Assembly: GCA_013375475.1 (NCBI GenBank)
Contig: JABXKD010000006.1
Coordinates: forward strand, 1 to 64,000
Direction of reading: 5' to 3'
DNA: 64,000 nt
Source of the DNA: Promethearchaeota archaeon
Lineage (GTDB): Archaea > Asgardarchaeota > Lokiarchaeia > Sigyniarchaeales > SOKP01
The notes beneath the pieces are model-generated. The model did no database searches, was not told where the DNA came from, and saw nothing but the letters and a program-made list of their open reading frames with translations. This document shows, piece by piece, positions 53,363 to 54,614 of this stretch (positions are counted from its first letter, which is position 1; each line of letters opens with the position of its first letter). A program made the position numbers and the translations under genes.

Positions 53363-54614
53363 ATTTCAGATTTAGACCAGGTAAAAGCTATAAATGCGAG
53401 ACAAATTAAGCTCCTTCAAGAAAGCGGGATTAGCACGGCGGAAGCGCTTGCTATGTCTCCGCATAATATCATATCGGAGATTGACGGATTAGGCGATAAA
53501 ACAGCCAAGAAGTTGATTTGGAACGCGCGAAATGCTTTAGGTATGACAGAATTCATTATTGCGGAGGATATTGACGAGAATACCGAGTACATAACCACTG
53601 GTTCTTCCGAGCTAAATAGGATATTGGGCGGTGGATTCCAAACAGGAAAGCTCACCGAGGTATACGGGCCGTTTAAAAGCGGAAAAACTAATTTAGCTCA
53701 CACGATTGCCGTGACTATCCAACTTTCGAGGAAGCAAGGAGGTTTAGGTGCTGCTGTAGCTTATATCGACACCGAAAATACTTTTTCAAAAGAAAAAATA
53801 AAAAGAATCGCCAAAAGGTTCGAACTCGATCCGAAGAAAGTCCTCTCACAGATATTCCACGCCAGGATTTATTCCTCTGATCATCAATCACAGATGGTTC
53901 AAAAAGCAGAAACATTGTGTAAAACCAGGAACGTTCGACTGATCGTAGTAGACAGTTTAATGGCTTTGATGAGGGTTGAATACGTGGGTATTGGCATGTT
54001 AGCTCGCCGTCAGGGCGTTCTCAACAACATGATCCATGGGCTTTCGCGAATTGCAGAAACTTACAATTGTGCCGTACTTTTAACTAATCAAGTGTCGACA
54101 AAGATGATGGGTATGTTCTCGGCAGATGACGCAATTGGAGGAAATAATGATTTCATGCATCATGAATCATTTCTAAATAGTTGCTCATGGTTGCCACTTC
54201 CGTGTCATGTTTAAGACCAAAGGATTTTCCTCAAATAATTCACTAAAAAGAAGGGCTGTCATTGTGGATGCTCCTGATTTACCACCCGAAGAATGTGAAT
54301 TTTTCATTACTTCAGCAGGAGTAGCGGATACAGAAAAAGCAGGTGTCCCGGACATTAAATCGATAGACTTTGAGGTCGAGGAATTGTTTGAAGAGGAACC
54401 AGAAGAAGTAATTGAGGAATCACCAGAGATACCTTTAATAAATGTAAAAGGAATAGGAGCGGGTACTGCTGAGAATCTGGAAGAACACGGGATTACATCG
54501 ATTGAGAATTTAATAAAATCTGATCCGGAAGAGATAGCTTCAAAGATAAGTGGAGTTTCTTCGAAGAAAGTTATCGAGTGGCAAACGAGTGCAAAAGAAC
54601 TAATCAAAATCTAA
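53363..54614 (+). CDS. radA: RadA/Rad51 recombinase with extra C-terminal HhH domain; join(53363..54145,54177..54614), about 406 aa
   Basis: N-terminal HhH, ITTGS.EL..ILGGG, GPFKSGKT, YIDTENTF, LIVVDS, LTNQV; removing 31 nt gives AIGGNIVAHGCHFRV; probable ATT start after SD ggagttga. Confidence 0.85.
54146..54176 (+). other. 31-nt bulge-helix-bulge (BHB) intron in radA
   Basis: Central helix GGAA/UUCU, 3-nt bulges AUA and AAA, flanking intron and exon stems; canonical cut sites equal the frame-restoring junction. Confidence 0.8.

Follow-up and report, generated by a model that had tools for sequence, protein, structure and literature searches.

A recombinase gene in two reading frames

The window analyzed here, the first 64,000 nt of contig JABXKD010000006.1, comes from an archaeon of the Promethearchaeota, in agreement with the original prediction that its host was likely an Asgard archaeon; it is contig C255 of a 3.9-Mb genome in 288 contigs (G000). 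Its plus strand carries a Rad51/RadA-family gene at 53363-54614 that is split by a frame-breaking insert of 31 nt at 54146-54176. The original prediction, made from the letters of the window, had described such an insert, and both its sequence and its coordinates are correct. For the reasons given below, we conclude that the insert is very probably a genuine archaeal bulge-helix-bulge (BHB) intron in the coding sequence of a RadA/Rad51 paralogue, which would be cut by the splicing endonuclease EndA and joined by the RNA ligase RtcB. The gene is organized as follows:

53363..54145, + strand: exon 1; its translation holds an N-terminal helix-hairpin-helix (HhH) domain and most of the Rad51/RadA ATPase core
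54146..54176, + strand: very probable BHB intron, 31 nt; skipped in RNA contigs, kept in a DNA contig
54177..54614, + strand: exon 2; completes the ATPase core (IVAHG...) and adds a linker and a second HhH domain at the C-terminus, with the stop codon at 54612-54614

The frame of exon 1 is open from 53354 to ...AIGGN at 54145, and the translation of exon 2 begins with IVAHGCHFRVMFK at 54177, in a different frame. A spliced message encodes approximately 406 residues, with the frame restored across the junction as ...GGN/IVAH.... An unspliced message would stop 22 codons into and past the insert, and its product would lack the IVAH segment and everything downstream of it.

The encoded protein is a member of the RadA/Rad51 family, as it combines a Rad51-type ATPase core (Pfam Rad51, E 1e-58) with an N-terminal HhH domain (HHH_5, E 4.2e-7). 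The best matches in the PDB were RadA, Rad51, and Dmc1 proteins (E 1e-54 to 1e-47), and the best solved relative was Rad51/RadA of P. furiosus (1pzn, E 7.9e-54). A second HHH_5 match (E 2.8e-10) lies at the C-terminus, in exon 2. Two other RadA paralogues are encoded in the genome, one of 332 aa with the canonical architecture and one of 420 aa with an N-terminal extension, and each is 40-43% identical to the split-gene protein. We searched for related proteins in 41 related genomes and then in all 42 genomes of the genus. The 332-aa and 420-aa paralogues had relatives in many of the 41 related genomes, and the split-gene paralogue was found in 25 of the 42 genus genomes (E <= 1e-90). Given the two further paralogues and the extra C-terminal HhH domain, the split gene is an accessory third RadA/Rad51 paralogue and not the main radA of its host. 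The name radA used in the original prediction is therefore right as to the family and wrong as to the paralogue.

The insert folds into a bulge-helix-bulge motif

We computed the unconstrained minimum-energy (MFE) structure of 54120-54195. It contains the following elements, where h is the helix on the exon side, H the central helix, and h' the helix on the intron side:

54131..54137, + strand: exon-side helix h, 5' strand; pairs with 54178-54184 in the MFE fold
54140..54143, + strand: H1, the GGAA strand of the 4-bp central helix, on the exon side; base-paired to 54171-54174 in the MFE fold
54144..54146, + strand: 5' bulge AUA; unpaired in the MFE fold, with the 5' splice site after 54145
54147..54170, + strand: intron hairpin h'; 54147-52 pairs with 54165-70 and 54154-57 with 54161-64, around a loop at 54158-60
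54171..54174, + strand: H2, intron strand UUCU of the central helix, seen in the MFE fold and in relatives
54175..54177, + strand: 3' bulge AAA; unpaired in the MFE fold, with the 3' splice site after 54176
54178..54184, + strand: exon-side helix h, 3' strand; pairs with 54131-54137 in the MFE fold

The central helix GGAA/UUCU is exactly 4 bp long, one G-U pair included, and h' is a 10-bp hairpin with a 3-nt loop that adjoins the 5' bulge. Outer exon pairs between AUGA (54126-29) and UCAU (54185-88) are also present. The structure has an energy of -23.6 kcal/mol, as compared to a mean of -14.7 +/- 2.8 for shuffled sequences (n=200; z = -3.19), and one shuffle was as stable. Every fold element named in the original prediction was thus reproduced. 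Both bulges (54144-46 and 54175-77) are unpaired in the MFE fold as well as in the 41-sequence model described below.

The description of this motif as canonical was only partly correct. It holds for the core (H, both bulges, and h'). However, G54138 and A54139 are unpaired and form a break between h and H, so that the exon stem does not run on into the central helix as it would in a strict hBHBh' motif. The 3' bulge faces these two unpaired bases, and the core is therefore canonical while the exon-side helix, which in relatives pairs in 82% of cells, is irregular. The motif fits the relaxed (HBh'-like) class of BHB rather than the strict hBHBh' class.

The 31 nt are present in DNA and absent from RNA

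To compare RNA with DNA at this locus we used public assembled contigs from three metatranscriptome runs and one DNA run. RNA runs X5 and X8 belong to study P3 and RNA run X7 to study P5, and the preparations differed between the two studies (random-primed and PolyA). DNA run X4 comes from study P2, which is not the study of the likely source sample. In one contig of each RNA run, 54145 was joined directly to 54177, with the 31 nt skipped:

X5, record 9 (study P3): 402 nt, 1 other letter, joint 54145-54177
X7, record 14 (study P5, PolyA): 206 nt, 0 other letters, joint 54145-54177
X8, record 21 (study P3): 426 nt, 3 other letters, joint 54145-54177

The DNA run gave the opposite result. A 666-nt contig of X4 (record 5), of which 610 nt aligned over 54091-54700, kept the insert, showed no differences from the window, and had no joint. 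This contig speaks against an assembly artefact, which the original prediction had named as a way in which it could fail.

In a BHB, with its 4-bp helix and two 3-nt bulges, EndA cleaves each bulge after the second base. On this rule the original prediction had placed the cuts after 54145 and 54176, and that junction is what was found in RNA contigs from three runs and two studies. From the contigs themselves, the exons are joined after a cut at the second or third base of each bulge in all 3 runs; the junction has an ambiguity of 1 nt, with an A common to both cut sites. This ambiguity is resolved by the homologous sequence L059, where the first intron base is T and only a cut after the second bulge base yields the conserved Asn-Ile junction. 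Thus the 31 nt are present in DNA and absent from RNA, and the junction lies where the EndA rule places it.

The spliced form was the only one present in the RNA contigs, and contigs give no ratios of spliced to unspliced message. The idea that the intron acts as a switch, also raised in the original prediction, found no support in these data. Positions 53300-53346 and 54616-54700 had depth in the DNA run and none in the RNA runs; this was not counted as evidence. Runs X5 and X8 also hold a contig from the orthologue of a related organism (loose ends at 54195 and 54241), in which GGN leads straight into the IVAH codons. This orthologue is either intron-less or spliced.

Presence and absence of the intron among relatives

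In a DNA alignment, ten same-genus orthologues lacked exactly the 31 nt and two carried a different 31-nt sequence at the site. Since sequences that differ from the insert of the window adopt the same fold, and others are missing precisely this segment, the BHB is more than a chance structure. At 29 same-genus loci, a 31-nt gap between the exons was present in 7 and absent in 19, and 3 were cut by a contig end. A further 29 loci, from named genome records, showed the gap in 4 (two of them duplicates of earlier loci) and none in 25. After duplicates were removed, the intron was present in 8 of 51 distinct gene sequences and absent in the other 43. The set of 51 does not include a ninth intron-bearing copy (L049), whose exon 1 is incomplete, and the tree built from it was also made without L018, L039, and L048 (cut by contig ends), L024-L026 (coverage filters), and seven duplicates. 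Intron-bearing copies show open frames of 285-295 aa, as compared to 410-433 aa in intron-less ones.

More copies were obtained from metagenomes with a search pattern that comprised the 3' splice site and exon 2. This gave 44 contigs, 42 of them assessable, and the same 31-nt architecture was seen in 41 of the 42, of which 32 were new distinct sequences. In all 41 distinct intron-bearing sequences the intron is exactly 31 nt long and has the same 3' end. The metagenome contig L174 is of a different kind. At 701-1289 it holds exon 2 preceded by no more than the final 7 intron bases, fused to unrelated DNA; an unrelated open frame of 207 codons precedes, and no exon 1 lies within 845 nt upstream. 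L174 is a rearrangement with its breakpoint inside the intron.

On a tree inferred from the exons, the intron trait needs at least 5 changes, 4 of which are forced by well-supported branches. Grouping the 8 intron-bearers together costs 293 log-likelihood units; the accompanying p-value of the approximately unbiased (AU) test, 4e-44, overstates the case and is descriptive, because the group was defined by the trait itself. A single origin retained within one clade was rejected on these results. Most simply, the intron was inserted once, long ago, and was then precisely lost several times. Among close relatives we favor repeated loss, and repeated gain is less likely; the intron could also have been transferred between lineages by recombination.

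Two genomes held more than one copy of the paralogue. Of the three copies in G008 (on C20, C12, and C49), one is intron-less and two have the intron, and both copies in G042 (C16 and C63) have it. These two genomes have an estimated contamination of 6-9%, and a mixture of strains is possible.

The fold covaries and both exons are under purifying selection

Two sets of sequences were used to examine covariation. The 9 intron-bearing sequences came from a protein search, which introduces no bias toward the RNA motif. The set of 41 adds the 32 metagenome rows, whose columns 52-59 (the 3' half of H together with the 3' bulge) had to match the search pattern.

For the 9 sequences, 91.2% of cells pair in the BHB structure. 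In helix h' the figure is 98.6%, and compensatory changes occur at 5 of its 8 pairs. Covariation scored 0.221, as compared to 0.120 for shuffled alignments, and none of 500 shuffles scored as high; registers slid along the alignment pair in just 26-56% of cells. Similar results were observed for the 41 sequences, where 91.7% of cells pair and the score was 0.234 versus 0.107 (again 0 of 500 shuffles as high). In this set h' is 95.7% paired, and 5 of its 8 counted pairs have changed on both sides, with 58 compensatory cells. The central helix H pairs in 100% of cells in both sets. Two other statistics for the 41 sequences were not above shuffles: the count of double-change pairs (350 of 500 as high) and that of further pair types (442 of 500 as high). 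The exon helix h lies over conserved codons, which account for most of its conservation. The BHB structure is thus conserved with compensatory changes. The original prediction had proposed that orthologues be aligned, and this alignment gave both precise presence or absence of the insert and covariation of the motif.

Orthologues are 77-95% identical in protein and 68-78% in DNA. We estimated the ratio of nonsynonymous to synonymous substitution rates (dN/dS) pairwise among intron-bearing copies; the ratios refer to pairs where dS could be computed, as dS was mostly saturated. They were 0.02-0.05 for exon 1 and 0.04-0.18 for exon 2. Exon 2 is open for 145-151 codons in all nine intron-bearing copies, in the frame that needs removal of the 31 nt. 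Both exons are therefore under purifying selection in intron-bearing copies. Because exon 2 is kept open in the post-splicing frame and dN/dS is low, the recombinase gene is not decaying, and the relaxed selection by which the original prediction would have recognized a pseudogene was not seen. On the combined evidence of the RNA and DNA contigs, purifying selection, and covariation, we reject a pseudogene or an assembly artefact as the source of the insert.

The host encodes EndA and RtcB

Two genes of the genome match PF01974 (tRNA_int_endo). The product of one keeps the positions of the Tyr/His/Lys triad that forms the EndA catalytic site, the catalytic His included, and its best match is chain 3p1z_B, which we take to be the catalytic subunit of the heterotetrameric enzyme of Aeropyrum pernix. 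The other has Ser where EndA of M. jannaschii (1a79) has the catalytic His (residue identities were read from printed alignments). This second EndA gene lies in the region of C133:34125-34373. RtcB is also encoded, at C211:64795-66102 (E 2.4e-168, 560.7 bits). The host therefore has genes for both a splicing endonuclease and an RNA ligase. ARAGORN, run with its intron search, reported introns in 22 of 44 tRNA genes. Several of these are at non-canonical positions, and a few of 359-1623 nt are doubtful and may be false. The catalytic EndA gene (C215:33041-33265) lies approximately 5 kb from the canonical 332-aa radA (C215:38231-38983).

Splicing of the recombinase message could then proceed as follows. 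The pre-mRNA would fold so that a 4-bp helix (54140-43 with 54171-74) stands between two 3-nt bulges. A two-gene, alpha/beta-type EndA would cleave 3' of the second base in both bulges (54145 and 54176), and an RtcB-type ligase would join the exons and restore the ...GGN/IVAH... frame. The intron would leave as a small RNA, probably a circle. That EndA and RtcB are the acting enzymes is our inference, drawn from how the motif is built and from the genes that the host encodes. Of the EndA/RtcB-type splicing put forward in the original prediction, the genes and the fit of the junction are confirmed, and the acting enzymes keep the status of an interpretation.

The available text of PMC5829648 reports that Asgard archaea carry an (alpha-beta)2 EndA with an L1 insert and that relaxed BHBs are cleaved just by the (alpha-beta)2 and epsilon2 types of EndA. 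Since the Asgard type of enzyme would accept relaxed motifs, the irregular exon helix observed here fits this account (PMC5829648).

Search for further coding-region introns

We scanned every contig of 1500 bases or longer, on both strands, for BHB motifs. A motif had to combine two 3-nt bulges around a 4-bp helix with an intron-side stem of 4 bp or longer and an intron of 12-120 nt, the removal of which must fuse open frames of at least 210 and at least 150 nt. The 60,263 raw matches were reduced to 3,215 by requiring that the unspliced frame end soon, and to 176 by stricter filters. Only at the site in the radA paralogue did the constrained BHB coincide with the MFE structure and enclose a compact intron. 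Seven other candidates that we inspected were ordinary adjacent genes, such as those for large and small enzyme subunits, or had a second exon with its own start. This strict-geometry scan, which would miss relaxed motifs, gave no second convincing coding-region BHB intron in the genome; because of that strictness, the uniqueness of the intron in the genome is unproven.

Other searches were also negative. The cbf5 gene of the host genome is uninterrupted and has no intron, and simple motif searches for dispersed copies of the intron returned nothing related. A covariance model (R1) run over the 42 genus genomes, with stricter filters and 150 candidates scored per genome, recovered only 7 radA copies. 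These scored 64-70 bits, as compared to 22.5 bits for the next-best match. The intron is specific to one site in one gene.

The start and the surroundings of the gene

One feature upstream of the gene may belong to its promoter:

53299..53306, + strand: TATA-like box, putative promoter element; TTTCTTTATA conserved in 11 of 14 aligned same-genus upstream regions

The translation start is unusual. The homologous start position is ATG in 21 orthologues, GTG in 1, and TTG in 1; in others it is a near-cognate codon, ATT in 9 (the window, at 53363, included), ATA in 6, and ACG in 4, each of which is one base away from ATG. Of the remaining rows, eight did not align to the anchor of this table and one ran into a contig end. 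In many orthologues, again including the window, a GGAG-TTG lies upstream, one base out of frame, before a run of A. The sequence of the window around 53346-53365 was confirmed by an independent DNA contig (X4, record 1). These unusual start codons, together with the out-of-frame GGAG-TTG, imply that translation of the recombinase relies on either a near-cognate start or a +1 shift. The start codon is likely the near-cognate ATT at 53363.

The neighborhood of the gene looks like one of DNA repair, with a KaiC/RadB-like P-loop ATPase (50072-50791), a FEN1/XPG-type nuclease (59489-60583), and an OB-fold (RPA-like) protein (62041-62985). Directly downstream, 54717-55988 encodes a 423-aa protein with repeated treble-clef zinc-finger motifs (DUF4379).

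Alternative explanations

A number of observations weigh against an intron spliced by EndA and RtcB. The exon helix h is irregular in the host genome, with its two unpaired bases, and in relatives it is 78-82% paired (82.2% in the 41 sequences), with 2 of its 7 pairs mostly broken. For the 9 sequences, RNAalifold prefers a slightly shifted register, with a 3-bp GGA/UCU helix in which A54146 is paired to U54171. The invariance of the 3' half of H and of the 3' bulge in the 32 metagenome rows is not independent, and around its conserved N-terminus the recombinase gene offers no canonical start codon in frame. EndA and RtcB were assigned just from motif geometry and gene presence. The RNA data are contigs, blind to the unspliced fraction, to a circular intron, and to strand. 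Finally, the RNA and DNA samples differ, and an intron-less strain otherwise more than 99% identical is conceivable.

Such a strain would remove the need for splicing altogether. The joined contigs would derive from its transcripts or from contaminating DNA, and the copy in the window would be a disrupted pseudogene. Most relatives indeed carry intron-less alleles (43 of 51), RNA libraries may contain DNA, contigs drop rare variants, and the RNA and DNA runs are from different samples. However, the joined contigs are only 0-3 letters off the window over 206-426 nt, whereas the intron-less orthologues of other species are approximately 68-78% identical in DNA, and the joint was found in all three RNA runs, from two studies, and not in the DNA run. 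Moreover, 41 distinct sequences retain the insert, with compensatory changes, and purifying selection acts on exon 2 in the frame that splicing creates; a dead gene would keep neither. We therefore regard this explanation as very unlikely. It could also be speculated that the joint is an artefact, either of a reverse transcriptase that skipped the hairpin or of the assembler, as the skipped segment is a strong hairpin and one A is common to both cut sites. A single shared base is a poor substrate for template switching, though, and the joined form was assembled in three libraries from two studies with different preparations; its junction also coincides exactly with the intron-less orthologues. 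The chance that the joint arose in this manner appears negligible.

Another possibility is that the RNA is indeed shortened but by other means, through another structure-specific nuclease and ligase or through self-cleavage. An irregular exon helix would be in keeping with a different activity. Yet the cuts fall after the second bulge base across a 4-bp helix, as the EndA rule has it, the features that are conserved are exactly H and the two bulges, and both EndA subunits and RtcB are encoded; as for self-cleavage, a group I or group II ribozyme needs far more than 31 nt. Removal by other means is thus very improbable, to about the same degree as a contribution from an intron-less strain. Still less credible is a mechanism at the level of translation, in which the insert stays in the mRNA and the ribosome hops over it, as in phage T4 gene 60, or shifts frame inside it. 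The stable hairpin with an in-frame stop shortly downstream does resemble a bypass signal, and the start arrangement at the 5' end of the gene is unusual. What is conserved, however, is BHB geometry and not matched take-off and landing codons, and there are RNA contigs without the 31 nt, so a translational mechanism is not needed. Excision of a BHB intron by EndA, with joining by RtcB, is by far the most likely explanation of the data.

Relation to known systems

The cbf5 pre-mRNA intron of Crenarchaeota was reportedly described by Watanabe in 2002 and by Yoshinari in 2006. In the available text of PMC2738675 (Yokobori 2009), cbf5 of Crenarchaeota is the only confirmed coding-region BHB case as of 2009, and in that of PMC7714728 it is, in 2020, still the only other mRNA example besides the 5' untranslated region of Haloferax HVO_1309. 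A full-text literature search, with subscription journals and supplements outside it, found no paper linking radA or an Asgard mRNA to a BHB intron. The main text of an October 2026 preprint on Asgard tRNA introns (bioRxiv 10.64898/2026.10.13.758758), as far as it was available, does not use the words 'mRNA', 'radA', or 'cbf5'; its supplement could list non-tRNA BHB sites. Within the literature searched, the intron described here is the second coding-region BHB case after crenarchaeal cbf5.

The two have much in common, as judged from the available text of PMC2738675. Both are short BHB-type introns in a coding sequence (16-44 bp in cbf5, 31 nt here), both interrupt a highly conserved motif, and both are too short for a homing endonuclease gene. 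Both sets of organisms have a hetero-oligomeric EndA, and in both the distribution is patchy and is read as gain and loss (PMC2738675). In contrast to cbf5, the gene here is a RadA/Rad51 paralogue from an Asgard phylum, Promethearchaeota, all 41 variants have an intron length of exactly 31 nt, and the evidence consists of metatranscriptome contigs rather than RT-PCR or an enzyme assay. HVO_1309 of Haloferax volcanii is likewise an mRNA substrate of the tRNA splicing endonuclease, but there, in the part of PMC7714728 available, the intron lies in the untranslated leader of a euryarchaeon with homodimeric EndA. Here it lies in the coding sequence, and its removal is needed for the frame. The archaeal tRNA and rRNA BHB introns (hBHBh', relaxed HBh'/hBH) share the motif geometry and the predicted enzymes, and differ in that the host RNA here is an mRNA.

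In eukaryotes, HAC1 and XBP1 mRNAs are spliced unconventionally by the nuclease IRE1 and the ligase Trl1 or RtcB. The process resembles the one proposed here in that protein enzymes splice an mRNA independently of the spliceosome, the reading frame changes, and a tRNA ligase joins the exons. On the other hand, IRE1 acts on twin stem-loops and the enzyme here, on our interpretation EndA, on a BHB; moreover, HAC1/XBP1 splicing is regulated by stress.

Implications

These results are of high interest for the Asgard lineage of the host, the evidence at the level of RNA, and a covariation set of 41 sequences. In practical terms, gene callers will report the intron-bearing recombinase paralogue as truncated or split. 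The intron is also a defined natural substrate for Asgard alpha/beta EndA, and its many precise presence and absence states at one site make it a good system in which to study the loss and gain of BHB introns in protein genes.

A broader reading, which we offer as speculation and consider doubtful, is that Asgard archaea use EndA and RtcB on protein-coding transcripts and that the intron is either functional, as a gate on the accessory recombinase, or a site-specific mobile BHB element that re-invades GGN/IVAH. Gating is conceivable because the unspliced mRNA would give a truncated protein and the near-cognate start is weak. If either a gate or a mobile element were confirmed, a prokaryotic parallel to enzyme-catalysed mRNA splicing of the HAC1/XBP1 type would exist in the archaeal lineage that is closest to eukaryotes.

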